Part shown: one piece after another, positions 4,482 through 26,467 of the stretch | Numbering within the stretch: position 1 is the first letter of the stretch | Layout: each line of letters opens with the position of its first letter | Source of the DNA: an uncultured Methanosarcinaceae archaeon | Lineage (GTDB): Archaea > Halobacteriota > Methanosarcinia > Methanosarcinales > Methanosarcinaceae | Direction: 5' to 3' | Assembly (NCBI GenBank): GCA_963727895.1 | Contig: CAVSHT010000004.1 | Coordinates: forward strand, 128,001 to 192,000 | Length of the DNA stretch: 64,000 nt | The notes under the pieces: model-generated | What the model was told of the DNA's origin: nothing | Database searches by the model: none | What the model saw: only the letters and a program-made list of their open reading frames with translations | Made by a program: the position numbers and the translations under genes

Positions 4482-4946
4482 GTGAAAATAATGAATGAAG
4501 AAGAAACGCCTATCCAATGGATTGAAGATATTGACAAAGTTGTTGCACTTATCTCATTTACATATCGCTCTGTCCAGAAGCATTTTGCGAATGAACTGGC
4601 TTCATACAATATAGGATGGGGCCATTTCTCTATCTTAATGTCGTTATATCGTCAGGAAGGTCGGAGCCAGGACAGCCTTGCACAATCGAGAGGATTTGAT
4701 AAAACGATGATTGCAAAATCGATACTGAAAATGGAAAAAGAAGGCATTGTCTACCGTATAACAGACCCGGAAGACAAAAGAATCAAAAGGCTCTACCTGA
4801 CTGAAAAAGGTAAAAAAATGAAGCCTGAAATGCGAAAAATAGGCTCCGAGCTGAACTCACTTCTGCTCAAGGATTTTGAATCAGATGAACTACAATCTGT
4901 TATTGAGATAATTCGAAAGATTGCTTTGAATGCAGCTAATCTCTAA
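4482..4946 (+). CDS. MarR-family transcriptional regulator
   Basis: wHTH with D.EDKR.KRLYLTEKG wing motif. Confidence 0.92.
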   Translation: MKIMNEEETPIQWIEDIDKVVALISFTYRSVQKHFANELASYNIGWGHFSILMSLYRQEGRSQDSLAQSRGFDKTMIAKSILKMEKEGIVYRITDPEDKRIKRLYLTEKGKKMKPEMRKIGSELNSLLLKDFESDELQSVIEIIRKIALNAANL

Positions 4947-5151
4947 ACAAGAACGCATTCACATTTATAAATGAGGATTGGGTTATGTAGAAACTTTCTT
5001 CCTATCCGTCTTATGCAGTTGATGTTCAAAAGATCTGTTTCAATCCTAATGAGTAAGTCCTAAAAGAATCAAACACCTTAAGTCAAGAGACTTTTTAGAT
5101 AATTCCCAAAATTTGATTTTTTATTTTGACAAAAAAATTCAGGGATCAAAT

Positions 5152-5943
5152 ATGCAAAACATACTTTCAGTCCAATCCCTTATAAAAAAATTTGATGATT
5201 TTACAGCCGTAAAAAACATTAGTTTTAATGTAGAAACAGGTTCAATCTTCGCTTTTTTAGGTCCAAATGGGGCAGGGAAATCCACAACAATCAAAATGCT
5301 CACAACTGTCCTGAAACCAACATCTGGAGACATAATTATCAATGGTTTCAATGTTCTTACAGAAAAGGATAAGGCACGTGCATCTTTTGGGATAGTCTTT
5401 CAGGATCCTAGTCTTGATGATGAGTTGACAGCTTACGAGAATATCGTCTATCATGCAGTTGTCTACAAAGTACCTAAAAAAGAAAGAGAAGACAGAATTC
5501 AGAAAGCTCTGGAAATTGTCGGGCTCTGGGACAGGCGTGAAGATTATGTTAAGAATTTTTCAGGCGGCGTGAAACGCAGGCTTGAGATTGCGCGTGCGCT
5601 TGTCCACTATCCGAAGATTCTTTTCCTTGATGAACCTACAGTAGGCCTTGATCCTCAGACTCGGAATTCTATATGGGACCATATAAAAAAGCTGAACGAA
5701 GAAAGAAATATGACAATTTTTCTGACAACACATTACATGGAAGAAGCTGAAGCAATTGCGGACCAGATAGCCGTTATTGATCACGGAAAAATTATAAAAT
5801 TGGGAACAGTTGAAGAGATTAAGAGCCAGACAAAAACCGAATCCTTAGAAGAAGCTTTTCTCAAACTAACAGGCAAAAACATTCGTGATGATAATGGGAC
5901 AAGTAAACAAATAATGATGCGAGGTATGGGGAGGATTAAATAA
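5152..5943 (+). CDS. DrrA-like ABC-2 ATP-binding protein
   Basis: GPNGAGKST, FSGGVKRRLEIA, LDEPTVGLD, LTTHYMEEA; ATG 5152 preferred over TTG 5113. Confidence 0.93.
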   Translation: MQNILSVQSLIKKFDDFTAVKNISFNVETGSIFAFLGPNGAGKSTTIKMLTTVLKPTSGDIIINGFNVLTEKDKARASFGIVFQDPSLDDELTAYENIVYHAVVYKVPKKEREDRIQKALEIVGLWDRREDYVKNFSGGVKRRLEIARALVHYPKILFLDEPTVGLDPQTRNSIWDHIKKLNEERNMTIFLTTHYMEEAEAIADQIAVIDHGKIIKLGTVEEIKSQTKTESLEEAFLKLTGKNIRDDNGTSKQIMMRGMGRIK

Positions 5944-6695
5944 TGATCGAGGTTATCTACGCTCTCTCTCTGAGGCAGCTCAAACATTATTGGCGTTCCA
6001 AGGCCAGACTTATAGGTACTCTAGGGCAACCAATGCTTTTTTTGATCGCTTTTGGATTTGGCTTCGGTCCTATGTATTCTCAGGTCAGTGGAGGAGCAAA
6101 TTACATTGATTTTCTTGCCCCAGGAATTGTCACAATGGGAATTCTATTTACAGCTGTCTTTTCTGGTCTGGAGGTAATATGGGACAGGCAATTCGGTTTT
6201 CTCAAGGAAACTCTGGTAGCTCCTATTTCAAGAACAGAGATCATGATTGGAAAAACGTTTGGAGGTGCAACTATAGCTATAATTCAGGGTTTGATTGTAC
6301 TTAGCCTAACGTATATTCTTGGATTCAGAATTTCCAGTATAAGTAGCCTTGTTATTGGGTTAATTTTTATGTTTTTGATAGCCATTTTCTTTACAGGAAT
6401 TGGTCTCACTATGGCTTCACAAATGAAAGATATGCAAGGGTTTCAGATGATATTGAACTTTCTAATTATGCCTACATTTTTCCTTTCAGGAGCTTTATTT
6501 CCTCTAAAAAACTTGCCTCCTGCAATTTATTTTATAAGCAGGATCGATCCGCTTACTTATGGGGTTGATGGTCTGAGAGGAGCAATCGCGGGTATAAGCA
6601 CTTTCAGTATCTCCAGCGATTTGGTGGTAATGGGCTCATTGTCAATTATCATCTGTTTGATAGGAACAATGTTTTTTTCAAAAATGGAGGCATAA
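5943..6695 (+). CDS. ABC-2 type permease (DrrB-like)
   Basis: DRQFGFLKETLVAP motif, multiple TM segments, directly follows ATPase. Confidence 0.92.
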   Translation: MIEVIYALSLRQLKHYWRSKARLIGTLGQPMLFLIAFGFGFGPMYSQVSGGANYIDFLAPGIVTMGILFTAVFSGLEVIWDRQFGFLKETLVAPISRTEIMIGKTFGGATIAIIQGLIVLSLTYILGFRISSISSLVIGLIFMFLIAIFFTGIGLTMASQMKDMQGFQMILNFLIMPTFFLSGALFPLKNLPPAIYFISRIDPLTYGVDGLRGAIAGISTFSISSDLVVMGSLSIIICLIGTMFFSKMEA

Positions 6696-6751
6696 GCCTC
6701 TAAGCATTACTTTCTTTTCATTACTTTAACATATTAAAGAAGGCGAACTAA

Positions 6752-7567
6752 ATGAGTGAAATTGACTGGGATACTCCAAAAAGTGATACAAATTATGATC
6801 AGAATTGTGATCATCAGTTTCAGAAAGGTCAAACACTGATAGAAATGATGAAAATAAAGAGCGGAGATTCTGTACTTGATATGGGCTGCGGGACAGGATG
6901 GCAGGCTTTAAATGTCTCGGGAGTTCTCGGGCCAGCTGGCAAGCTTACGTGTATTGATCCTTCCTCATATCGTATAGAACTTGCACGGAAAAAGTTTGGC
7001 GTTGATTCTCTCAATAATGTCCGTTTTCTTGTGGGGCAGACTGAAAATCTTAGTAAAGTACCTGACAACTCAATCAACCATGTCTATTTCTGTTCTTCAT
7101 TTCACTGGATTGCTGACAAGAGAACCGCTCTCAGTGAAACATATAGAGTGCTTCAATCAGGGGGCAGTGTAGGAATGACAACGCTTGATAGAGACAGCCC
7201 TGATATGATGAGAACGCTTGTAGATCCTATTTTAGCAAAATATAACATTACAAGGAAATATAAATTACACAGGGAAATAAGCAGAGTAAATGCACAGGAG
7301 CTCCATAAACTTCTGTCGGAAGCCGGTTTTACCTTTATTTCAATTGAACCAAGGACGATTTCAAGGAATTATCGTTCACCTGAAGAATTTTTGAAACACC
7401 TGGAAGAAAGGGATAGTATGAGGAGTTTGTTGAAAGATATCCCAGAAAAAATTAAGGAAAAGATCAAACAGGAGATTTACGAAGAACTCACTAAGATCCA
7501 AAAACCGGTCTTTGCTGAGTTTGGTATTGTTACATTGTTCGCAATTGCAAAAAAACTAAATGAGTAA
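6752..7567 (+). CDS. class I SAM-dependent methyltransferase
   Basis: VLDMGCGTG motif I, SSFHW, E.YRVLQSGG. Confidence 0.88.
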   Translation: MSEIDWDTPKSDTNYDQNCDHQFQKGQTLIEMMKIKSGDSVLDMGCGTGWQALNVSGVLGPAGKLTCIDPSSYRIELARKKFGVDSLNNVRFLVGQTENLSKVPDNSINHVYFCSSFHWIADKRTALSETYRVLQSGGSVGMTTLDRDSPDMMRTLVDPILAKYNITRKYKLHREISRVNAQELHKLLSEAGFTFISIEPRTISRNYRSPEEFLKHLEERDSMRSLLKDIPEKIKEKIKQEIYEELTKIQKPVFAEFGIVTLFAIAKKLNE

Positions 7568-7606
7568 TGTTAATGAAAAATAGGTGATTCATCTTTAATC
7601 AGTTAA

Positions 7607-7859
7607 TGTTCATGTCCACAGACCTCCTGCAGTAACACTCAATGAAACTCCTGAGGAATTCCATATTTCCATTGGACTTCGATAGTTAAATGATGAATGC
7701 TCACGTAAATTGTATCTATTTTTCGCAATCACAAGAAAGTTCTGAAAATCATTAAAAGTTGCATCATTTAGCCTCTTGACTATAGATGTTGATTTGTGTT
7801 TACAAATATGTCCGAAGATTTAAATCAAATTTACTGCAAGAGGTCTGTGGACATGACCC
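7607..7859. mobile_element. MITE, family B (TIR GTTCATGTCCACAGACCTC), 253 bp
   Basis: Terminal inverted repeats; flanked by TTAA and CTAG; related copies at 14104-14227 and from 40594. Confidence 0.75.
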
Positions 7860-8010
7860 CTAGCAGATGACCAAAACTAGACTTTCAGGTTTCTCCACAT
7901 TGTCTTATGAGCTTAGCACAACTGCATTACTGCTGATGTACCTCATAATAGGATTACTCTAAATGGAAAGAGTAGCACAAGGCAATTTATGACATAACTT
8001 CTTGTCGCAC
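7860..8010 (-). ncRNA. group II intron 5' fragment (start of domain I)
   Basis: Begins GTGCG on minus strand at 8010; near-identical to 26317-26467; truncated by the MITE. Confidence 0.85.
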
Positions 8011-8068: not shown

Positions 8069-8701
8069 TCAGTGCCGTTCAGACAATGAGTAAATTACAT
8101 AATGAGATGCAAATTTAGTGTTAATTTCTATCGTTTTTAGTTCTTTTATGACAAAATAAGGTGAAAAGAGGTCCTTTATTTCGGACTCCGAAGAGAAATA
8201 CAATGTTGTTCCCAGCTGAGTTTTCCGGAATTTACCCTTGCCGCCGAACTGTGGATCTTTCTTAGAAAAACAGACCGAAAGGTACTGTGCTCTTGGTTTC
8301 AGGAGATTATATACATTTTTTACGTATTTTTTTCGGTCTTCCGGAAAGATATGGTGTAAAAATTCCCAGTCATAGCCAAAGTCAAAAGTCTCTTTTATTT
8401 CATGCAAATCACCGAGGAGATCAGCGACAACAAACCTGCACCTGACTCCCCGTCTTTGTGCGTTTTCAGTAGCGATCTTTATTATGGTAGGGGAATTATC
8501 GATACCGGTTACCTCAAATCCCTGACCTGCAAGGTATATCGCATAGTTGCCTGCACCACAACCAAGATCAATAGTCTTGCAGGGCAGGATTTTTCCACTC
8601 TGTACCAATTCAACAAGTGCATCTGGAGGTGTCTCACTATTCCAGGGGATTTTATCAAGCGGTACCTTCTGGTAGATTTTGTCGACGTCGACATATTTCA
8701 T
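8069..8701 (-). CDS. class I SAM methyltransferase (TPMT/TehB-like), last gene of the nitrogenase-like operon
   Basis: IPW..ETPP, IDLGCGAG, FD..YD...LHH; about 30 nt after the NifH-like stop. Confidence 0.85.
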   Translation of the reverse strand: MKYVDVDKIYQKVPLDKIPWNSETPPDALVELVQSGKILPCKTIDLGCGAGNYAIYLAGQGFEVTGIDNSPTIIKIATENAQRRGVRCRFVVADLLGDLHEIKETFDFGYDWEFLHHIFPEDRKKYVKNVYNLLKPRAQYLSVCFSKKDPQFGGKGKFRKTQLGTTLYFSSESEIKDLFSPYFVIKELKTIEINTKFASHYVIYSLSERH

Positions 8702-8730
8702 ACATGCTACTTCCGGAAATGATTGAGTTC

Positions 8731-9579
8731 TTATTTTTTTACCAGAGATTGCCGGTACATTGTCTCAAGCTCGGCAAGGTCATTTATCGGTGTAGGGATT
8801 ACCCGTGAATCATTCTCCATAATCGCTTTTGCAAGGTTTCGGAAGATTTCTGCTTCCCGTGAATCTGGAGCATATTCCACAAGCTGTTCTCCCTTCTAGC
8901 TCACAAGCCTGAATCAAAGGACTCCTGGGGACAAATTGGACAAATGAGGTTCCCAGCTTTTTTGCAAATGCAGGAATAAATGCATGCTCGAAAGCCTCAT
9001 CACCGTTGCTGTTGCAAATTATCCCGGCAAGACCTGCATCTCCTCGCTTTGCAAGACGCTGCACGGCCCGCGCAATATTATTTGCAGCGTATATACTCAT
9101 GAACCCTCCAGAACAAAATAAGGTAGATCTCTTCTGCAAAACCTTCACGAATCGGCATCGAGAATCCACCGCATACTACATCGCCAAGCACATCGTAGAT
9201 TGCCACATCAATGTTGTAGATCGAAAAAGCCCTGAGGTCTTTCAGGATCTGCAGTGCGGTCAGCACGCCTCGACCGGCACATCCTATACCTGGTTCTGGT
9301 CCCCCAGCTTCGACAAGGTAGACCCCACCGGGTGATCTGAATACGATATTATCCAGATTGATTGCATACTCGTCTTTTCCTACCCTCAACTGTTCACGGT
9401 GTTCTTCCAGCACTGCGAAAATAAACTTCCCCTCTGCAAGGATCCTTGTCGAATCCCTCTTGGGATCACAACCAACTTGCATGACAGTGTGCTCCACCTC
9501 ATTTAATGCGGCGGACAGGTTCGAGGAGATAGTGGCTCTTCCCAATTCCACCTTTGCCATAGATCGCGATCTGTCTCAT
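8731..9579 (-). pseudogene. NifH-like (group IV-type) Fe-protein, three apparent +1 frameshifts (possibly assembly errors)
   Basis: Reconstructed MRQIAIYGKGGIGKST, GCDPKRDST, EAGGPEPGIGCAGRG, DVLGDVVCGGF, IICNS; ATG at 9579, TAA at 8731. Confidence 0.9.
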
Positions 9580-9586
9580 AGTTCCT

Positions 9587-10945
9587 TCACCATTTTGCCT
9601 CATATCTCTTTTCCTTCGAACGCCACCCCATTGTCCATTCGTTCTGGACGCACTCAAACAGATTAAGAATACCGTTATACCCGAAGTATTCTCGGTTGAT
9701 CATCCTGAACTGGCGTATCATCCTGACCACCTCAATGACATAGGCAACGGGAAGTCCCTCGATGGCATGCCTTTCGATTGTACTGCCAAACACGACCTGA
9801 GGCCTGACCTCCTGGAGACCCTTTCGTGTTTTATATACATCTGTTCCGTAAACGATCTTAGGATTAAGCCCGAGATTCTTGAGTTCCAGCTCCAGCAATT
9901 CTCTCACTGACCGTTGTGAAGTGTACAGAGCAATGAGTTCTGGAGTCATCTCCATCTCCTCTGTGACAAAACGAACCAGCGGTATTCCTATTGTAGCATC
10001 GGCAACAATTGCTGCCGGGGTTCGGTATAGGAATCTTGCCATCGGCCATTCGCGCCGGCACGTTGCCATCACCATACGTTCGCCTTCGACAATCATCTCT
10101 TCCGCCATTTTCAGTGAATCGAACCTCTCTCCCAAAGCGATAAGCCAACGTTTTGTGTTTGTCATTCCTATAGGCAGTGGTATTCCTTTGCAGACCTGCT
10201 CGATGCCATATACTGCAGAAAGATAATCCGCTGCTTTTTGTCCAGCATCATGACTCAACAGGAGGGATGTCTCGGCAGATGCAATATTCTCGATTTCAGC
10301 AATAGGAGTTCGGTGTGTCAGCGTGGCTACAACCTTAACGCCCATCCGGGAGAGAACCTGCTTCACCCACGCAAGGTCTGCTGGCCATGTGGGGTTGGCG
10401 TTTGCATGGGGAGCAACAAGGCAAACTGAATTAGGAACTTTTTCAACGTCACTTTTCACCAACTTTTTCAGGATCGTATCCAGCGCGATGTCGATGCCGT
10501 CATACTGTAACCCTCTGAATCCGGCGCATTCAATAGGAATGAGTCGGAACTTTACTTCAGGCTGCAATGCCTCGCATACTCCCACAATGTCGTCTCCCAC
10601 TATCTCGGGCCCACACGCGCTGAGCACGAACAGGGCAGAGATCGGCAGATCTTTTACCTCCCTGATCGTGCGGGCAAGTATGTCCTCTCCACCATGCACG
10701 ATCTCATCTACACAGAGCTTCGTACACAGAGTCATAGTTTCCATGTAGTCGCACTCCTGTGAGGCGAAGGCATTGTTGACAAGGTACTCGCATCCTTGAG
10801 GAGAATGGGCAAGCAAGGAAGAATTGGATATCCCTAATGCTGTGAGAGCAGCGCCGTTGAAAGCACAACGGAGATAAGGATCTGTACAGGCCTCCGAAGA
10901 TAAAATTAAAGGCGCAGCTGTTCCCTCAATTGATTCTTGTTCCAT
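9587..10945 (-). CDS. nitrogenase component 1 beta-like (NifK/NifN-like) subunit
   Basis: LRCAFNGA, HSPQGC, IVHGGEDIL, LSACGPEIVGDD, PIGM.NT, YFGYNG; start MEQESIEG at 10945. Confidence 0.88.
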   Translation of the reverse strand: MEQESIEGTAAPLILSSEACTDPYLRCAFNGAALTALGISNSSLLAHSPQGCEYLVNNAFASQECDYMETMTLCTKLCVDEIVHGGEDILARTIREVKDLPISALFVLSACGPEIVGDDIVGVCEALQPEVKFRLIPIECAGFRGLQYDGIDIALDTILKKLVKSDVEKVPNSVCLVAPHANANPTWPADLAWVKQVLSRMGVKVVATLTHRTPIAEIENIASAETSLLLSHDAGQKAADYLSAVYGIEQVCKGIPLPIGMTNTKRWLIALGERFDSLKMAEEMIVEGERMVMATCRREWPMARFLYRTPAAIVADATIGIPLVRFVTEEMEMTPELIALYTSQRSVRELLELELKNLGLNPKIVYGTDVYKTRKGLQEVRPQVVFGSTIERHAIEGLPVAYVIEVVRMIRQFRMINREYFGYNGILNLFECVQNEWTMGWRSKEKRYEAKW

Positions 10946-12429
10946 AGAGCATCCCTTTAAATAAGCGCGAACGTGGGAGGTCTTTGTTCTCAAGGGCCTG
11001 TCTGACGAGAGCTGCAATGTTCTTTATCCCTCTGAAACCATACTGAGGCTGAAACACCGGATTCATGAGTGTTAAGTTTACTACCGGACATGGAGGAAAA
11101 CGACCAGAATTCCCGAAGAATATGGGGTTGTCATATCCCTTCACGATCTCCTCAAGTTCGTCCTCAGTCTCTTTTGACGACCGAAAACTCCCCAGACGGA
11201 AGAGCCCTTTTGTCAGAATAATCTCCGGATTAACCCCGGCTTCCAGGAGAAACTTTATACTGGGCATACGTTCTTTGATAGTATATGGGTGGACGTTAAT
11301 TACAATAGGATGGGCGCCAAACTCTGCTGCCATCCGTGCAAGGGAAAGCGCCCTTATTGGCCCTGGAAACTCCGAGATTTCTATGATAGCTGTTTTCCCG
11401 GAAAGAGTCTTTCTTAGGTATTCAATTTCCGGTTCCACTTCCTGTAACTCTCGTTCAATTACCTTAATGGCTTCAGCTTCCATTCCAAGAGGTGTTGCAA
11501 CTCCAAGCAACCATTCCTTTGTAGCTTCAGGCCCATAGGGTTGCCCAGTTTTGCTGTAGGGGATACCGAACCGCTCCTGCATCAGGTCACCCAATTTCTG
11601 TCCCCAATCAAAACACCATGAGGCATTCAGCTCAACCTCTCTGGCATGCCTGATTTGATCAACTGTGCACCCTCCAGCAATGATAGCGTTAATCTTTATT
11701 CCTACTTCACTAAGGAGCCGCTCTATTTCATCCATGTCCCAGTTGAACTCTGTGGGGGTAGGGCCCAGCGGGCTCCAAGAATGTTAATTGTCCTTTTCAT
11801 TTTCGTTTTAGGAGGATCCATCAAATCCATGATAAGCTTAAAAGCGTCCTCATAACCGCTTCGGAAATCCCCGCCAAATCCTTCACTGCGGAGTGCCAGC
11901 ACCCGGCAACCAACCAGCTTCTCTACCTCATGGGCAATACTTTCAACGTCATCACCGATAATTCCGGAGCAGTAGCAAGAGAGGATGACAATGAGGTCTG
12001 AGTGGTACTTAGCGTATGCTTCCTTTACTGCTTCCAGGAGTTTTCCCTCTCCACCATAAATGATGTTGCTCTCATTAAGGGTGGTACAAGCTGTGGGTTC
12101 GAGCGGGATTCCACGGATCTCACAGCACTCCCGGGTCCTGACAAAGTCCGACATGTAGAGTGGGCATCCGGTCGGACCGTGGACAAGAGGAACAACATGA
12201 CGAATCCCGCTGATGACGTAGTAAGAAGTAAAAAACTTGCACATAGGAGCATGCGAAGCCTGCAGTTTGGGAATCATCTCGCCCGTTTCTACTTTTTTCA
12301 GTAACTGCTGCAGGTCACCGTGAAAAACTATGGAATTATTTTCCGAATTCACACATTTTTCAATGTTGCATGGAGATAAATATTTTCCTAAATTTGGTTC
12401 AGTGTAGTTGCAGGGGATGTGATAAATTT
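10926..12429 (-). pseudogene. nitrogenase component 1 alpha-like (NifD/NifE-like) subunit; one frameshift near 11765, 5' end abuts an IS6 end
   Basis: MCKF, HGPTGC, TTLNESNIIYGGE, SCYCSGIIGDD, SEGF, ELNASWC, PYGPEAT, QYGFRG; start codon uncertain. Confidence 0.85.
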
Positions 12430-12497
12430 GGTTTCGTTGCAAAATATCTCAGAATAAGCCTGTAAATCTATGGATAATGAACAAAAGTTAAAATATC
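12430..12497. mobile_element. IS6-family terminal fragment
   Basis: ggtttcgttgcaaaatatctcagaataagc matches the IS6 end at 47123. Confidence 0.7.
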
Positions 12498-12750
12498 CAA
12501 AGAAAAGGAGTATATGGTTCTTACACCTTTTTTGCGTTGAATATAAGGGTTATCGAAGAAAACTCTTATATTCTCATAGTCTTTGGAATTGATTTTAACT
12601 CAAACACATAGCAAGCTTTAACCGATATTGTTTTTATTTGTTGAGTAAACAAACTCAACGAATTCGCTAGATTTTATTTATAAATGATCTAAGATATTAG
12701 TGAAAAAAAGTGGGAACTGTAAGGAAGGATATTACTCTTTGCTTGTTAAT

Positions 12751-13138: not shown

Positions 13139-13880
13139 GGCTTTGATACTTAAACATAGTTATATACTATTAGAAAGTATATTTCTTCATTAACTGCCCC
13201 AGATGCAATAGTTCCAGTCACAAAAAGAATGGTATAGTTGGTGGTCGTCAACGCTACAAATGCCATGATTGTGGATATAACTATACAGTAGAGCTAAAAT
13301 CAACTGCTTTTTCCGCCTCTGTCAAAAAACAGGCTTTACAACTTTACCTTGAAGGATTGGGCTTTCGTTCAATAGGACGAGTTTTAGGGGTGAGTCATGT
13401 TTCTGTCCAAAAATGGATAAAGAAATTTGGTCAAGAGTTAGAGGCTCTAAAAAGCGAAAATGAGATATCTATTGTTGAACTGGATGAGATGCACACTTAC
13501 ATCGGTAACAAAAAAAAATATTGCTGGATCTGGATTGCTGTTGATAGAGTTGGGAAAAAGTTCATCAACTGCTCTTTTGGTAGCAGAGGAACGGAAACTG
13601 GAAAACTACTCTGGGAAAAATTGAAGAAAAAAGAGATTGGAGAAGTGATGACAGATCACTGGAGAGCATATGCAGAGTTTCTTCCAGAAAAGAATCATAC
13701 TCAATCAAAAGCAGAAACATTTACAGTTGAGGGATATAACAGCATATTGAGGCACTTTCTAGCAAGATTAAGAAGAAAGACAAAGTGTTATACGAAGAGT
13801 ATTGAAATGCTAAAGTACTCGGTTATTCCATTGATGAAATACAGAAATAAAGAGTTAACTATGTTTAGATAACAATATCG
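13139..13880 (+). mobile_element. IS1-family element (start codon reads ATT; InsA/InsB frames fused by an A9 tract)
   Basis: CPRC/CHDC zinc ribbon, ELDEMHTY, MTDHW, VEGYN; ends ggctttgatactt / aacaatatc. Confidence 0.9.
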
Positions 13881-13974
13881 AATATTTTAATAACCCCCTA
13901 TACATATTAAATTAATTTGAATATTTGATAAGTTGCCAAAAACGATGTGCTAAGACCCAACTGCGTAACTCCTA

Positions 13975-14025
13975 TATTGATGAAATACAGAAATAAAGAG
14001 TTAACTATGTTTAGTTAACAATGCC
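13975..14025 (+). mobile_element. IS1 right-end fragment
   Basis: Repeats the last ~50 bp of the IS1 copies, ending aacaatgcc. Confidence 0.75.
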
Positions 14026-14103
14026 CGAAAATTTTCTCCTCGCACTTTAAGGCTATAATTGACACCTTTATGTACTATTTTTCCAGGTGATGAGAATGAT
14101 TAA

Positions 14104-14227
14104 CGTTCATGTCCAGAGACCTTCGGCAGTAAATTTGATTTAAATCTTTTGACACAGTCCAGTGAAAATATGGAATTCCTTGGGAGTTTAATTGAGTGTT
14201 ACTGCAGGAGGTCTGTGGACATGAACC
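14104..14227. mobile_element. MITE family B, 124-bp internally deleted copy
   Basis: TIRs cgttcatgtcc / ggacatgaacc with TTAA on both sides; nested in IS6-type remnants spanning about 14026-14275. Confidence 0.8.
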
Positions 14228-14417
14228 TTAACCGATGACCAATGAATCCTTATTATGATTTTTTGCAACAGAACCGATTAAAGCGTTAAATTTGTTTGTT
14301 CTTTCTATTTTTCCTTTATTTTTTCCTGATACGACAATATTTCATTTAGTTATTGGCTTAAAAGGATAGTATATTCAATATTAGGAAAACGCTTATAACT
14401 CCTAAATCGTAACAATT

Positions 14418-15248
14418 GTGTACATGACACAAAAATTCACTCTTACCATTCAATCTGGAAAAAACAGATTAGGAGAACAGGAAGGATTTGAAAGCATAGA
14501 AATAAAGCCAGGGGATACCCTCTCAATTGTAGGCCCTACTGGCTCAGGAAAATCAGCTTTAATTAATGATATTGAAACTCTTGCACAGGGAGATACTGTA
14601 ACAGATCGGAGGATTCTAATCAATGACGAAGAACCTCCCGAATCCTTTGTACGGGAGCCAGCCTTCAAACCGATTGCCATGATAACCCAGAACACACGTT
14701 GTCTGGCAGATCTCTCAGTCGAAGCATTCCTGCTGATGCATATAAGAGCAAGGCGACCTGGTAGGGAAGACCTGCTTGACGAGACAATGAATCTTGCAAA
14801 TACTTTTACAGGTGAAGAGATCAGCCTTAAATGTCGTATGAGCGGCTTATCTGGAGGGCAGACCAGATCGCTTATGATTGCAGATGCACTTGTAATCGGC
14901 GATACTCCGATACTTCTGCTTGACGAAATCGAAAACGCAGGCATCTTCAAAGACCGGGTCATTCAGTCTCTTCAGGGAGGAAACAAGGCAGTTATCCTTG
15001 TAACACACGACCCTTATCTTGCTCTTACGGCAGGCAGGCGCATAGTGATGAAGAATGGGGGAGTTGCTTCTGTGATCGAGCCGGCAGGACAGGAGCAGCA
15101 TCTTATTGAATATCTTGCTTTAATCGATGACCGACTCCATCAAATCCGGGAGAAACTCAGACAGGGAGCTTCTTTCCCGTCAAGTTCTCCGAAAGTTATT
15201 TCAGAGACTGTAATGGCTGCGGTTGAACAGGAGGTAATCTACAGATGA
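14418..15248 (+). CDS. stand-alone ABC-type ATPase
   Basis: GPTGSGKS, LSGGQ, LLDEIEN, VTHD; no adjacent permease. Confidence 0.85.
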   Translation: MYMTQKFTLTIQSGKNRLGEQEGFESIEIKPGDTLSIVGPTGSGKSALINDIETLAQGDTVTDRRILINDEEPPESFVREPAFKPIAMITQNTRCLADLSVEAFLLMHIRARRPGREDLLDETMNLANTFTGEEISLKCRMSGLSGGQTRSLMIADALVIGDTPILLLDEIENAGIFKDRVIQSLQGGNKAVILVTHDPYLALTAGRRIVMKNGGVASVIEPAGQEQHLIEYLALIDDRLHQIREKLRQGASFPSSSPKVISETVMAAVEQEVIYR

Positions 15249-15949
15249 AGCTCCTAATAATCGCAGGCCCTCCAAGCGGAGGAAAAACAGCTGTGATCCG
15301 CCAGGTTATAAAAAATCTCCCCGAAGGATCCCTTCTCGCCTTCCTGAAGATCGATGTTGTACATGCAACAGAAGACCAGGAACTTGCAGATGAGTTTGAC
15401 ATTCCTGTCAAAAAAATATATTCGGGAGACGTGTGCCCTGACCATATGGGAATTCTGGTCCTTGACGACGCATTACGCTGGGCCGAGAGCATTTTAAGAA
15501 ATATCCTGATAATTGAAAGCGCAGGACTCTGTCTCAGGTGCACTCCTTACACGACTTACTCTCTTGGAATTGCAGTTGTCAGCGCGATCTCAGGCACCAA
15601 TTCCCCGCTCAAAATGGCCCCTTTGCTTGCTCTTGCAGATGTGGCAGTTGTTACCAAAACTGACCTTGTATCACAGGCAGAAAAAGAGGTTTTCAGGGAA
15701 AGCATCCGAAAAGTTGTCCCGAATATTGACATAGTAGAAACAAATGCAGTTCAGGGAACAGGTCTAAGATACCTGATGAGGCGGATTGCCGAGCATCCGG
15801 ATATAGGGCCTGACCCGATCGTGCTCAGAGGTGCCCCTCCGCTTGGCGTCTGTACGGTATGTATTGGGAAAAAAGAAATCGGATGGAAAAACCACTTTGG
15901 AATCATCCGGCCGCTGGATATGCCAGAGCCCATCTACAGAGGCGACTGA
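15245..15949 (+). CDS. HypB/UreG-like (G3E) GTP-binding protein
   Basis: GPPSGGKT, CPDH, IESAGLCLRC, TKTD, C-terminal CTVC. Confidence 0.85.
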   Translation: MKLLIIAGPPSGGKTAVIRQVIKNLPEGSLLAFLKIDVVHATEDQELADEFDIPVKKIYSGDVCPDHMGILVLDDALRWAESILRNILIIESAGLCLRCTPYTTYSLGIAVVSAISGTNSPLKMAPLLALADVAVVTKTDLVSQAEKEVFRESIRKVVPNIDIVETNAVQGTGLRYLMRRIAEHPDIGPDPIVLRGAPPLGVCTVCIGKKEIGWKNHFGIIRPLDMPEPIYRGD

Positions 15950-24341: not shown

Positions 24342-26467
24342 GTTGAATAAGAAAGAGCGATTGCTCGCTCTCCCTCTTCTAAGAACCGGACTTGAAAGTT
24401 TCCCTTCATCCGGCTCAAGTGTTCTATAACCCTTTCTGTATCAGGCAGCAGTTTTTTTTCAAACGGATTGACTTTTCCTTGAACTTAATTTATTATGACG
24501 TTCATGGAAGTAGTCGATATCAAGAAATGGATTCATTTGCAGTTTTAAAGGAATGTGTCTATGGATTTTAGTTTTGGATAAAAGCAACAAACTGTTTCTT
24601 TCTGTTCTGAAGTTCCATTTTCGTGTAGCACTTTGCTTCCAATATTTGTTGATAATCCAATTTTTGGATTTGTTTGGATGTCTTCTTTTAGCCCATCTCC
24701 ATAACATTTCCCACATTCGATGGTCAAGTGTCTGGAATGTTTCAGAAGAGACCACTGAATTATGATAGTTAGTCCAACCTCTAATTATTGGATTTAGTTT
24801 GGAAATTAAGTTATCTTGGGACCATGCTATCCCTTTTCTTAAGGTTTGACTAATTGTTTCAGTGAATCTTTTAATGGACTTCTTGGAAGGCTTGGTCAGT
24901 AGCTTGCCTTTGTACTCGCGAAAATTCCAGCCCAGAAAGTCGAAGCCTTCATAATATTTGTGATAAGAGTTTTATCATCAGACAGTTCAAGACCTCTTTC
25001 TTTAAGAAAAACAGCAATCTTATCTTTGATTTCTCTGGCAGTTTCTTCTGAATTAGCAGTTACTATGAAATCATCGCAGTACCTGATGAAGTTAATCTTG
25101 GTTGAATTCTTTTTTTTTAGGGTATTCATCCAAAAGTAACTTCTCAAGACCGTCCAATGTCATATTAGCCAAGATAGGGGAGATCATTCCGCCTTGTGGT
25201 GTGCCTGCTTTTGTTGGATTTGTGTGACGTTTGTAAATAAATCCTGCTTTGAGAAATTGAATTAATACTGATTTTTCCATTGGAATATTGGCCAGTAACC
25301 ACTGATGATTAATGTTATCGAAACACCCTTTAATATCGCCTTCTAAAATCCATTGCGCTGAATTTTTCTTGCTTAGACATAGAAAGATTTGCTCACAAGC
25401 ATCCTTAGTACTTCGGTGTTTTCTAAAGCCAAAGGACCTTATATCAGACAAGGTTTCAGCTATGGGGTCAAGAGCTAATGCGTATAAAGACTGCACAGCT
25501 CTATCATACATTGTAGGGATACCTAAAGGACGTCTCTTCTTTTTACCAGGTTTATTAATGAAAACTCTTTTGAGGGGTTTAGCTTTGTATCTTTTATCAG
25601 TAAGAATAAGAACAGCTTTCATCCTAGAGTCGGGTGTTAGCCATTTCTCACCATCGATTCCAGATGTCCTTTTTCCTTTATTTTGAATGACTCTTCTTAC
25701 TGCCAATAGTTTGGCAGAATAGAAATGTGTCAGTAAATATTGTAATCTCTTAATAAGGTTCCATTTGTTTTGTAAAACTGCTTTTGTAATTCGGGTTTGC
25801 AACTTATTAACGCTTTTCTCTACTTTATGCCAGTTGATACTTTTCTATTTCTGGGAGAGATAAGCGTCTGTAAGCTTCTTATCCTGAAGGGATATCGTTG
25901 AAATACTTACATTCAGAAGTTTGCCTCCTTTCATACAATAGAACACCATCAGTAAGTCTGCATCCTTTCGGATCAAGGCAAAGTTTGAACCTCTATCCAA
26001 TTCATTACAAATTGACATTCGCTTTTTACTGAATCCTATACCCTCTATGCAATTAATTCCCTTCACAGAGTTTCTACCCTTTTTTTTTAATTAAAAGGAG
26101 CATATAGGGCTTACCAAGTTTTATGTCACAAATAATGTAAATGTTTTAGAAGCCATCTATAGACCGGAAAGTGTATGTCCATTTTCTGCGACGTCTGTAA
26201 CACCATCGCACCCTGCTTTCATACCGTTTGGTTCAAGCGTATCAGTCTAGTTTCGCTTGTCATGAGTCACGACCCGTACAATGATTCAACATATGTTTCT
26301 TCATAGCATTTTTACCCTAGCAGATGACCCAAGTTAGACTTTCAGGCTTTTCCACATTGTCTTACGAGCTTAGTACAACTGCATTACTGCTGATGCACCT
26401 CATAATAGGATTACTCTAAATGGAAAGAGTAGCACAAGGCAATTTATGACATAACATCTTGTCGCAC
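24342..26467 (-). ncRNA. group II intron (probably chloroplast-like class)
   Basis: 5' GTGCG, domain V GAGCCGGATGAAGGGAAACTTTCAAGTCCGGTTC, domain VI hairpin ending AAC. Confidence 0.93.
24459..25916 (-). pseudogene. ltrA: intron-encoded reverse transcriptase/maturase without an evident endonuclease domain; TAG at 25845, two frameshifts, CTG start
   Basis: RPLGIPTMYDR, EGDIKGCFDNI, GTPQGG.ISP, RYCDD, X-domain RWAKRRHP. Confidence 0.9.

Follow-up and report, generated by a model that had tools for sequence, protein, structure and literature searches.

A D-K-H gene island from an uncharacterized branch of the nitrogenase-like family, with an optional methyltransferase, in an uncultured Methanosarcinaceae archaeon

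We analyzed a 64,000-nucleotide stretch (hereafter the window) from the genome of an uncultured Methanosarcinaceae archaeon (assembly GCA_963727895.1; contig CAVSHT010000004.1, positions 128,001 to 192,000). Four co-oriented genes on the minus strand, spanning 8069–12442 of the window, encode in order D-like, K-like, and H-like proteins of the nitrogenase superfamily and a methyltransferase (MT). An initial annotation, made from the sequence alone, had described these genes as tightly coupled and richer in GC than their flanks; open reading frames (ORFs), Pfam matches, and gene spacing confirm the coupling. The system is a real, widespread, and uncharacterized branch of the nitrogenase-like (NFL) family, and adds a member to a known kind.

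The nflD-like gene, for the alpha-type subunit, lies at 10926–12442 (all four genes being on the minus strand) and is read as two ORFs, 12442–11723 (239 amino acids, aa) and 11735–10926 (269 aa), because one base is missing at ~11763. Its true start is uncertain (12442 to ~12370), since a 72-nt genomic repeat overlaps the 5′ end. The nflK-like gene, for the beta-type subunit (9587–10945), is intact and encodes 452 aa from a likely start MEQES at 10945; the ORF itself reaches upstream to 11017 (11017–9587), and the orthologues have 452 aa. The nflH-like gene (8731–9579), for an ATPase/[4Fe-4S] reductase, runs from an ATG at 9579 to a TAA at 8733–8731. It falls into four frame segments, with ORFs at 9560–9078 and 9169–8810 and a tail to the TAA, and its P-loop MRQIAIYGKGGIGKS is present and uninterrupted. 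An intact gene at 8069–8701 encodes the 210-aa MT, assigned through Pfam to the class I S-adenosylmethionine (SAM)-dependent methyltransferases. D and K overlap, 7 nt separate the K stop from the H ATG, and ~30 nt lie between the H stop and the MT ATG.

The D, K, and H products all pass the Pfam gathering scores for the nitrogenase component 1 or NifH families. Against PF00148 (Oxidored_nitro; gathering cut-off 28.6 bits), the two D pieces gave E values of 4e-34 and 9.5e-26 (118.6 and 91 bits) and K gave 3e-73 (247.4 bits); against PF00142 (Fer4_NifH; cut-off 25), pieces of H gave 3.4e-47 and 2.4e-16 (161.6 and 60.4 bits). The GC excess was also confirmed, with values of 0.47–0.48 for D, 0.49 for K, 0.48 for H, and 0.41 for MT, compared with a window average of 0.358 and a genome average of 0.366. 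As the initial annotation had stated, nifB, nifEN, nifI, and vnfG/anfG are missing from the window: this stretch of the contig carries neither nifB nor any P-II, AnfG/VnfG, or additional PF00148 gene, and the nifB, other PF00148, P-II, and AnfG/VnfG genes of this genome lie on other contigs (C3, C7, C9, C11, and C13).

Conserved residues point to a nitrogenase-like metal center. We used A. vinelandii residue numbering and mapped its motifs onto this clade. The equivalents of Cys62, Cys88, Cys154, and Cys275 are cysteine in 66/66 D orthologues, and the three P-cluster ligands of K are cysteine in 68/68. The Cys275 equivalent recognized earlier in the alpha-like chain (NASWC) is therefore invariant, and so is the second cysteine of its extra ECC motif (66/66). 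In an alignment of 23 clade members with canonical NifD, NifE, and VnfD, the Gln191 equivalent is Arg in 23/23 and the His195 equivalent is Tyr or Phe in 22/23; Lys426 and Arg96 are not conserved, and the His442 column is a gap, in line with the absence of a His442 motif noted at the outset. These residues are named by Dos Santos et al. (2012; PMC3464626). Further near-invariant cysteines occur in D (C90, 66/66; C102, 65/66; C139, 66/66; C141, 64/66; C242, 66/66) and in K (C44, 67/68; C98, 68/68; C102, 67/68; C148, 67/68). The clade thus retains six P-cluster cysteines and a Cys275 equivalent and lacks His442, the combination that marks NFL proteins of the P-cluster/L-cluster-like type, described for methylthio-alkane reductase (MAR) and predicted for most of groups IV-A, C, D, and E. 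These observations support the initial proposal of a heteromeric nitrogenase-like system without the residues needed for N2 reduction.

Comparison with curated family models placed the proteins outside the characterized clades, as had been anticipated. An intact 488-aa orthologue (L075) stood in for D and an intact 281-aa orthologue for H. Among NCBIfam models, D scored 162.5 bits with nifE (cut-off 505.1), 128 with nifD (653.55), 69.4 with VNFD (823.1), 71.5 with ANFD (873.8), 43.7 with methan_mark_13 (CfbD; 268.4), and 80 with BchB (490) of dark-operative protochlorophyllide oxidoreductase (DPOR). K scored 28.5 with nifN (326.8), and its best NCBIfam match was DPOR_BchB at 108 (490.35); the group V models were likewise missed (DPOR_bchN, 50.8 against 419.95; BchZ, 32.7 against 529). 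D and K therefore fall short of every curated Nif, Vnf, Anf, NifEN, CfbD, and DPOR cut-off, by a factor of at least 3, and H falls below both nifH (336.4; cut-off 394.35) and CfbC (332.7; cut-off 402). Of solved structures, D matched C. pasteurianum NifD at 122 bits, 9fmg_A and 9d9u_A at 119, and a NifEN fusion at 101, and K matched none above 70 bits (MarK, 66 bits); 9FMG and 9D9U are MarDK of R. rubrum (PMC13474568).

The closest relatives were found in the vnf operon of the same genome. When 1.84 billion representatives clustered at 50% identity were searched, a single full-length entry (91%) stood for the whole clade, followed by P0242 (41%), P0243 (36%), and others at no more than 33% identity; of the 105 nearest full-length representatives, none (0/105) matches an NCBIfam model at E 1e-80. 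P0243 has its counterpart on contig C11 of the window's genome, where genes of 510 and 474 aa lie directly downstream of VnfD/VnfK and score only 165.7 and 135.4 bits with the nifE model (cut-off 505). This E/N-like pair comprises the closest relatives found of D (36% identity, 330 bits) and K (39%, 327 bits). Such vnf-cluster genes in Methanosarcina have been annotated as vnfEN (10.1101/2021.06.03.447018). The initial annotation had not foreseen this relationship, and the pair is itself non-canonical. Searches of 401 genomes of the phylum for the P0242 clade returned only the clade described here and the vnfE-like genes, at 36–42% identity.

Three trees were used to place the clade: 88 rows under LG+G4, 53 rows under a C20 mixture, and 49 rows that included the canonical NifD, NifE, NifK, and NifN of a same-genus genome (G135), labeled through NCBIfam. 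In all three, the clade was recovered with support of 99–100 in the Shimodaira–Hasegawa-like approximate likelihood ratio test (SH-aLRT) and was sister to the vnfE-like pair plus P0242 with support of 99; K grouped with the vnfN-like protein (99–100). Canonical NifD, NifE, VnfD, and AnfD formed their own group in the 49-row tree (100), and an approximately unbiased (AU) test rejected a grouping of the clade with NifE (p = 7.6e-7), a grouping that was chosen after the earlier trees had been seen. A Mar-like clade, labeled through P0289 (276 bits to MarD 9fmg_A) rather than by a Mar sequence itself, was separate in all three trees. By scores, trees, or both, the clade thus stands apart from NifD/VnfD/AnfD, NifE/NifN, Mar-like proteins, CfbD, and DPOR and chlorophyllide oxidoreductase (COR). 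PDB searches with P0253 and P0263 from neighboring clades gave no match at E 1e-40. An AlphaFold model of the intact D orthologue (mean pLDDT, the predicted local distance difference test, of 85.4) had MarD 9fmg_A (E 1.1e-26; template modeling [TM] scores 0.68/0.71), C. pasteurianum NifD, and NifE as its best fold matches, and this fold search does not separate the three as nearest neighbor (TM 0.63–0.74). Our literature search, which covered neither bioRxiv supplements nor figures, found no description of this clade, and the four supplementary files of PMC13753814 contain none of the strings "Methano", "Chloroflex", "Dehalococc", or "Anaerolin".

The clade extends well beyond the window's genome. 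We collected 79 related loci, with K identities of 52% to 91%. By their record taxa, the archaeal loci come from Methanoregula(ceae), Methanolinea, Methanotrichaceae/Methanothrix, Methanosarcina(ceae), Methanolliviera, Bathyarchaeia, and unclassified "Euryarchaeota/Halobacteriota" bins, and Acidiferrales, Dehalococcoidia, and Anaerolineae are also recorded. Many are peat, fen, or wetland metagenome bins according to their record titles. D-K-H are collinear on one strand in 71/79 loci; seven of the remaining eight are cut by a contig end, and one (L090) has no D match. Recurrent neighbors include the ATPase (19 loci) and permease (9) of an ATP-binding cassette (ABC)-2 exporter, a flavin mononucleotide (FMN) reductase (7), DUF169 (5), and a major facilitator superfamily (MFS) transporter (5); these were too scattered for a pathway to be built on them. 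In a set of fen/"Euryarchaeota" loci (L055–L064), three to five tandem genes for RDD-family zinc-ribbon membrane proteins follow D-K-H(-MT), and two small conserved genes that match no Pfam family precede them; because the loci belong to close relatives, common descent rather than function may explain the shared order.

Gene linkage ties the system to NifB. A NifB-like radical-SAM gene (~280 aa) directly follows H in 9/10 Chloroflexota loci with flanking sequence and in one Bathyarchaeota locus, and the one member checked scored 272.9 bits with the nifB model over the SAM domain. In an Anaerolineae genome (G001, 3.3 Mb), a Dehalococcoidia genome (G005, 4.0 Mb), and the Bathyarchaeota genome (G002), this adjoining gene is the only NifB homologue at E 1e-20 or better. 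Neither G001 nor G005 contains a PF00148 gene besides this pair, and with its own H and NifB and no other nitrogenase genes present, the system stands alone there rather than serving a nitrogenase. An archaeon of 2.1 Mb (G004) carries the pair and two PF00148 singletons, with a full-scoring NifB elsewhere in the genome; NifB is on contig C9 in the window's genome and, according to a preprint (10.1101/2023.10.20.563283), occurs in all 245 methanogen proteomes that it examined. The tie to NifB argues for a carbide-type cluster.

On this basis, D-K-H most probably encode an autonomous, ATP-driven reductase with a NifB-derived cofactor and a substrate other than N2. Judging from ligands and gene linkage, the complex would be a two-component reductase consisting of NflD2K2 and the NflH ATPase. 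The NflH dimer, with its predicted [4Fe-4S] cluster, would transfer electrons in an ATP-driven manner to a P-cluster-type center held by three cysteines of D and three of K. Electrons would then pass to an L-cluster-like [8Fe-9S-C] cofactor on the Cys275-equivalent cysteine of D, where a small substrate other than N2 would be reduced. The cofactor may be made by NifB, encoded next to the system in Chloroflexota and one Bathyarchaeota genome and supplied as a housekeeping protein in methanogens. Our whole account, namely a reductase from an uncharacterized NFL clade ("group IV" in the broad sense) with a NifB cofactor, a probably imported island, an optional MT, and frame breaks that lean toward artefact, is one to which we assign a probability of about 0.7.

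The association with the methyltransferase proved to be facultative. In Pfam, MT matched Methyltransf_25 (E 2.5e-19), TPMT (44.8 bits; cut-off 26), and TehB (35.2; 20.4), with Methyltransf_25 and Methyltransf_11 scoring higher than the latter two. It reaches no NCBIfam cut-off (BchM/ChlM, 42.6 bits against 158.9), and a protein-atlas search returned generic names only. Its nearest solved relative is an M. acetivorans methyltransferase without a stated function (6mro_A, 84.8 bits); weaker ones are thiol, halide, and tellurite (TehB) methyltransferases and Rv0560c. We surveyed the 64 loci with at least 1 kb of sequence beyond H. An MT orthologue directly follows H on the same strand in 14/64 and occurs anywhere in the locus in 19/64. 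It is adjacent in 6/7 Methanosarcinaceae loci; in Methanomicrobiales and Methanotrichales it is adjacent in 4/31 and present anywhere in 8/31, in other or unclassified archaea in 4/16 and 5/16, and in Chloroflexota in 0/10.

Within the family, MT orthologues with 78–90% identity were found in 12/150 other sampled Methanosarcinaceae genomes at E 1e-40 or better, one of them a fragment. Three genomes with MT only (G064, G119, and G018) have no remnant of D, K, or H within ~8 kb, and every examined Methanosarcinaceae D-K-H copy carries MT except one (L081). Because MT stands alone elsewhere and is intact in a genome where D-K-H have decayed (G076, see below), it is best seen as a facultative accessory or optional passenger. 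The proposed coupling to a methyltransferase consequently does not hold as a general feature of the system. Of the two chemistries that had been read from the TPMT-like partner, a role in sulfur or chalcogen chemistry is a guess, and tetrapyrrole chemistry is unlikely for a system that differs from CfbD and DPOR in retaining the P-cluster and Cys275 ligands and in its link to NifB.

The window's own copy of the island is broken as assembled. Four single-base indels interrupt the coding sequence, i.e., one base missing at ~11763 in D and extra bases at ~9534, 9116/7, and 8884/7 in H. They were called against intact orthologues (L075/L099, L013/L100, and L097) and relatives' contigs from three public runs (X2, X4, and X12), none of which contains any of the four. 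The initial annotation had seen three P-cluster-type cysteines in both subunits, which stands for K; in D, the codon at 11972–11974 (minus strand) is TAC (Tyr), the tyrosine of "SCYC" occupies the column of the Cys154 equivalent, and the window copy, as read, therefore lacks its third D ligand. The family keeps all six: in this column, cysteine is found in 66/66 D orthologues and 45/45 diverse superfamily sequences. Unique changes at invariant columns of the window copy are P148S and C157Y in D and P41F in H, whereas K, compared with 68 orthologues, has none (0). The D, K, and H proteins are nevertheless piecewise 90–100% identical to intact orthologues, with D being 92–96% identical to the 488-aa orthologue of L075, and intact copies occur in three same-genus genomes (G135, G129, and G103). 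In no read run did half of the sampled words occur; the best-matching one (X1, share 0.17) yielded four pieces without differences, none spanning the indel sites or 11972–11974. An RNA library (X12) yielded contigs with ~90% identity across MT/H, H, and D; as DNA carry-over may account for them, they hint at best at expression in relatives.

To gauge how often this assembly breaks genes, we took 187 ORFs of at least 200 aa from 20 evenly spaced 20-kb stretches of the closed genome G135, of which 74 had orthologues in the window's genome at ≥70% identity and ≥70% coverage. Frame breaks or in-alignment stops affected 14/74 of these control genes (12 breaks and 14 stops in 86.6 kb), patchily and often with several in neighboring genes; a smaller comparison had found two broken genes outside the island. 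Although the nif operon (C3) contains nine single-base coding indels in 4.25 kb, it is still 89% identical in nucleotides to that of a relative. Splits affect anfG and one nifI gene, and a VnfK/AnfK-type gene on C7 (49820–51208) has an in-frame stop; the vnf genes appear intact. The assembly is 84% "complete" in 19 contigs. With a fifth of its conserved genes broken, it is error-prone, and we take artefact as the starting assumption.

Several points weigh against our account. The island's break density, four in 3.7 kb, is 3.6 to 7.8 times the control rate (P ~0.002–0.03 under a simple Poisson model, which overstates significance because breaks come in patches). The change at the invariant ligand cysteine is a substitution, not an indel. 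In addition, a closed genome of the same genus (G076; L098, C1:640000–652000) carries the same island in a genuinely decayed state, with D fragmented into four pieces and containing two stops, K split in two, only the last ~45 residues of H, and MT intact. Beyond the breaks, the trees are quick searches with SH-aLRT support only and contain no named references for NFL groups IV-A, IV-D, IV-E, IV-F, and VI; the proposed cofactor is read from ligand conservation and NifB linkage; and, since the sister pair is annotated as a maturase, a scaffold role is conceivable.

For the window copy itself, assembly errors are the likelier source of the four breaks and the Cys-to-Tyr change, given that control genes break in patches, that the assembly is only 84% "complete" despite having just 19 contigs, that the nif operon shows still more indels, and that the pieces remain so similar to intact orthologues. 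Real inactivation is the less favored reading, though one with appreciable weight, through the excess break density, the ligand substitution, and the genuine decay in G076. It would make this a genuine pseudogene cluster, an imported island in the course of being lost with its methyltransferase kept, and would fit the confinement of the frameshifts and unique changes to D and H, with K and MT untouched, and the absence of the indels from intact orthologues and the X2, X4, and X12 contigs.

Alternative functions were weighed against the same evidence. D and K could form a cofactor maturase or scaffold analogous to VnfEN/NifEN rather than a catalytic reductase, as their sister relation to the E/N-like pair directly downstream of vnfDGK (36% and 39% identity, ~330 bits) would suggest; in the alignment, D resembles canonical NifE in having no His442 equivalent and a Tyr in place of His195. 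However, the clade occurs with its own H and NifB in two genomes where no other PF00148 protein could receive a cofactor (G001 and G005) and in an archaeon without a nitrogenase gene set (G004), and all three beta-subunit cysteines are kept (68/68), whereas canonical NifN keeps only one of the three P-cluster cysteines. We regard a maturase role as unlikely. Slightly less probable again is a system for scavenging organic sulfur of the methylthio-alkane-reductase type, in which a thiol- or halide-type MT would act on the thiol product or make the substrate. The B-H-D-K parts list recalls MarBHDK, MarD heads the fold matches, the weaker solved relatives of MT include methyltransferases for thiols, halides, and tellurite, and many loci are from peat, fen, and wetland bins. 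Against this, the Mar-like clade (recognized through P0289) is separate in three trees, D and K reach only 119 and 66 bits with MarD and MarK, the MT link is facultative, and, in published screens, MAR activity was seen in group IV-C alone (PMC13753814, a 2026 screen).

Two further possibilities appear very improbable. A reductase that modifies tetrapyrroles like CfbCD, DPOR, or group VI enzymes, with MT methylating the ring, could account for the nearly equal H scores with CfbC (332.7) and nifH (336.4), for DPOR BchB as the best NCBIfam match of K (108 bits), and for the weak BchM/ChlM match of MT; all of these scores are far under their cut-offs, though, and the genome has its own CfbD (576 bits). 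Tetrapyrrole NFLs are described in PMC13474568 as using [4Fe-4S] clusters without the ligands in question, whereas this NifB-linked clade has retained both the Cys275 equivalent and six P-cluster cysteines. A minimal alternative system for N2 fixation, comparable to Nfa or to NifEN in the role of a "prototype nitrogenase", is about equally hard to credit: the self-contained D-K-H-B set in Chloroflexota and the weak N2 reduction reported for NifEN with an L-cluster (PMC13474568) speak for it, but the Gln191, His195, and His442 equivalents are absent and Lys426 is not conserved, and no P-II gene was seen nearby in the window or among the Pfam-annotated neighbor clusters found in more than two loci. 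The reading of D-K-H as an autonomous reductase of a non-N2 substrate remains preferred.

The setting of the island is consistent with import. At its upstream edge, a 72-nt dispersed repeat (12430–12501) abuts or overlaps the D start; it has 42 matches in its own genome, ~40 of which are copies of the 72-nt element at 90–94% identity, and relatives' contigs lose similarity to the window at these positions. On the downstream side, a repeat search identified a ~290-nt element with terminal inverted repeats (7586–7874) that resembles a miniature inverted-repeat transposable element or the end of an insertion sequence (IS). A partial inverted copy lies at 14100–14248 (segments of 93 and 48 nt, each at 88%), so that MT-H-K-D and an IS1 remnant (~6.2 kb) lie between the two; at other places in the genome, the two halves of this element flank ~1.1-kb units, like IS ends. 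The IS1-family transposase remnant (13139–14025, plus strand; a 171-aa ORF with DDE_Tnp_IS1 at E 9.7e-22) is located between the island and the next genes and has a 47-nt direct repeat (13830–13876 and 13976–14022) and short inverted ends.

Phylogeny and distribution agree with this setting. In the 88-row tree, Methanosarcina D sequences nest among those of Methanoregula, Methanolinea, and Methanotrichaceae (support 100), and K orthologues were found in only 4/150 other sampled Methanosarcinaceae genomes (E 1e-100), plus one fragmented copy in G155. From the GC excess, the nested phylogeny, the patchy presence within the genus, and the flanking repeats and IS1 remnant, we infer that a few Methanosarcina probably acquired the island from a donor of the Methanomicrobiales type, at a site rich in mobile elements.

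Other features of the window lie around this island. A second GC-rich islet (14418–15949, plus strand; GC 0.46–0.49) encodes an ABC_tran-like ATPase (276 aa) that overlaps a CobW/HypB/UreG-type GTPase (234 aa), the latter scoring 59.6 bits with the hypB model (cut-off 121). We considered these two genes as parts of the system and rejected them, there being no counterpart adjoining D-K-H in the 79 loci and only two weak ABC matches. Convergent with the island, the plus strand at 4482–7567 encodes a regulator of the MarR family, the ATPase and permease of an ABC-2 exporter, and another class I methyltransferase, of 271 aa; exporters of this type are among the recurrent neighbors of D-K-H elsewhere. 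At 25092–25802, the minus strand encodes a reverse transcriptase (RVT_N and RVT_1 domains) of the kind found in group II introns or retrons.

Set beside known systems, the clade most resembles the vnf-operon E/N-like pair (C11:26499–28031 and C11:25174–26598; L004 and L009). Both are non-canonical (162–166 bits with the nifE model against 505), and both have equivalents of Cys62, Cys88, Cys154, and Cys275 and a gap at His442. The pair lies within the vnf operon downstream of vnfDGK, however, and is a presumed maturase, whereas the clade has its own H (plus NifB in Chloroflexota), occurs in genomes without any nitrogenase, and has extra conserved cysteines, e.g., C102 of D (65/66) and C102 of K (67/68). 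Like the clade, MarBHDK of Rhodospirillum rubrum (group IV-C; 9FMG and 9D9U) is a two-component NFL system made up of H, D, and K with a maturase of the NifB type; its metal centers are a P-cluster and a cofactor resembling the L-cluster that has no ligand of the His442 type (PMC13474568). The clade differs from it in its separate placement, in its scores of 119 and 66 bits, and in the gene order D-K-H(-B).

The alpha subunit of canonical NifEN, like D, keeps the Cys275 equivalent, lacks His442, and has Tyr at His195, and the folds are similar (TM 0.65–0.74). In contrast to the clade, canonical NifE groups with NifD/VnfD/AnfD (100), the AU test rejecting its union with the clade (p = 7.6e-7), and the clade scores 162.5 against the nifE cut-off of 505.1 and does not conserve the Lys426 equivalent. 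With NifDK, VnfDGK, and AnfDGK, the clade has in common the superfamily, the fold, six P-cluster cysteines, the Cys275 equivalent, and an ATP-dependent Fe-protein partner; it differs in lacking the His442, Gln191, and His195 equivalents and a conserved Lys426, and in having no G subunit, nifI, or nifEN alongside. CfbCD (IV-B) uses a single homomeric D-type subunit, whereas the clade is heteromeric (D plus K) and falls below the TIGR03282 and NF033200 cut-offs. IsrHDK (IV-F) and group VI, compared by description, diverge at the P-cluster cysteines and the FeMo-co Cys/His (PMC13474568); the clade keeps those cysteines.

The clade also fits the description of the "green" NifE/N-related lineages of Dos Santos et al. 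(2012), which have adjacent alpha- and beta-like genes, three P-cluster cysteines each, Cys275 present, His442 absent, and Archaea among their hosts (PMC3464626). That paper gives these lineages no function, and its text names no Methanoregula, Methanosarcina, or Chloroflexota member of the clade. "Early diverged VnfE" clades of ambiguous placement are likewise mentioned by Garcia et al. (2022; PMC8890362). In a 2026 review (PMC13474568), NFL groups IV-C (MAR), IV-F (ISR), IV-A (Nfa), and IV-B (CfbCD) have functions, and groups IV-D and IV-E are listed as being without one.

Outside chlorophyll synthesis, only four nitrogenase-like branches thus have an assigned reaction, i.e., Nfa, CfbCD, MAR, and ISR, and each new assignment has revealed unexpected anaerobic chemistry. 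Although the value of this window's copy is lower because it is broken as assembled, the system is compact (D-K-H, with NifB in bacteria), apparently autonomous, and tied to NifB, which makes it a tractable candidate for a fifth chemistry, one based on a nitrogenase-type carbide cluster. A bolder scenario, which we put forward as tentative and on balance doubtful, is that the clade consists of stand-alone L-cluster enzymes that depend on NifB and are the closest autonomous relatives of the VnfE/N-like maturases, an early-branching group. The archaeal "VnfEN" may have been recruited from such a catalytic reductase (or the reverse), and the reductase may cleave C-S or C-X bonds in wetland methanogens, Bathyarchaeia, and Chloroflexota, with MT capping the thiol or chalcogenide product. 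The position of the clade beside the E/N-like pair of the Methanosarcina vnf operon bears on how maturases and catalytic enzymes of this family diverged.

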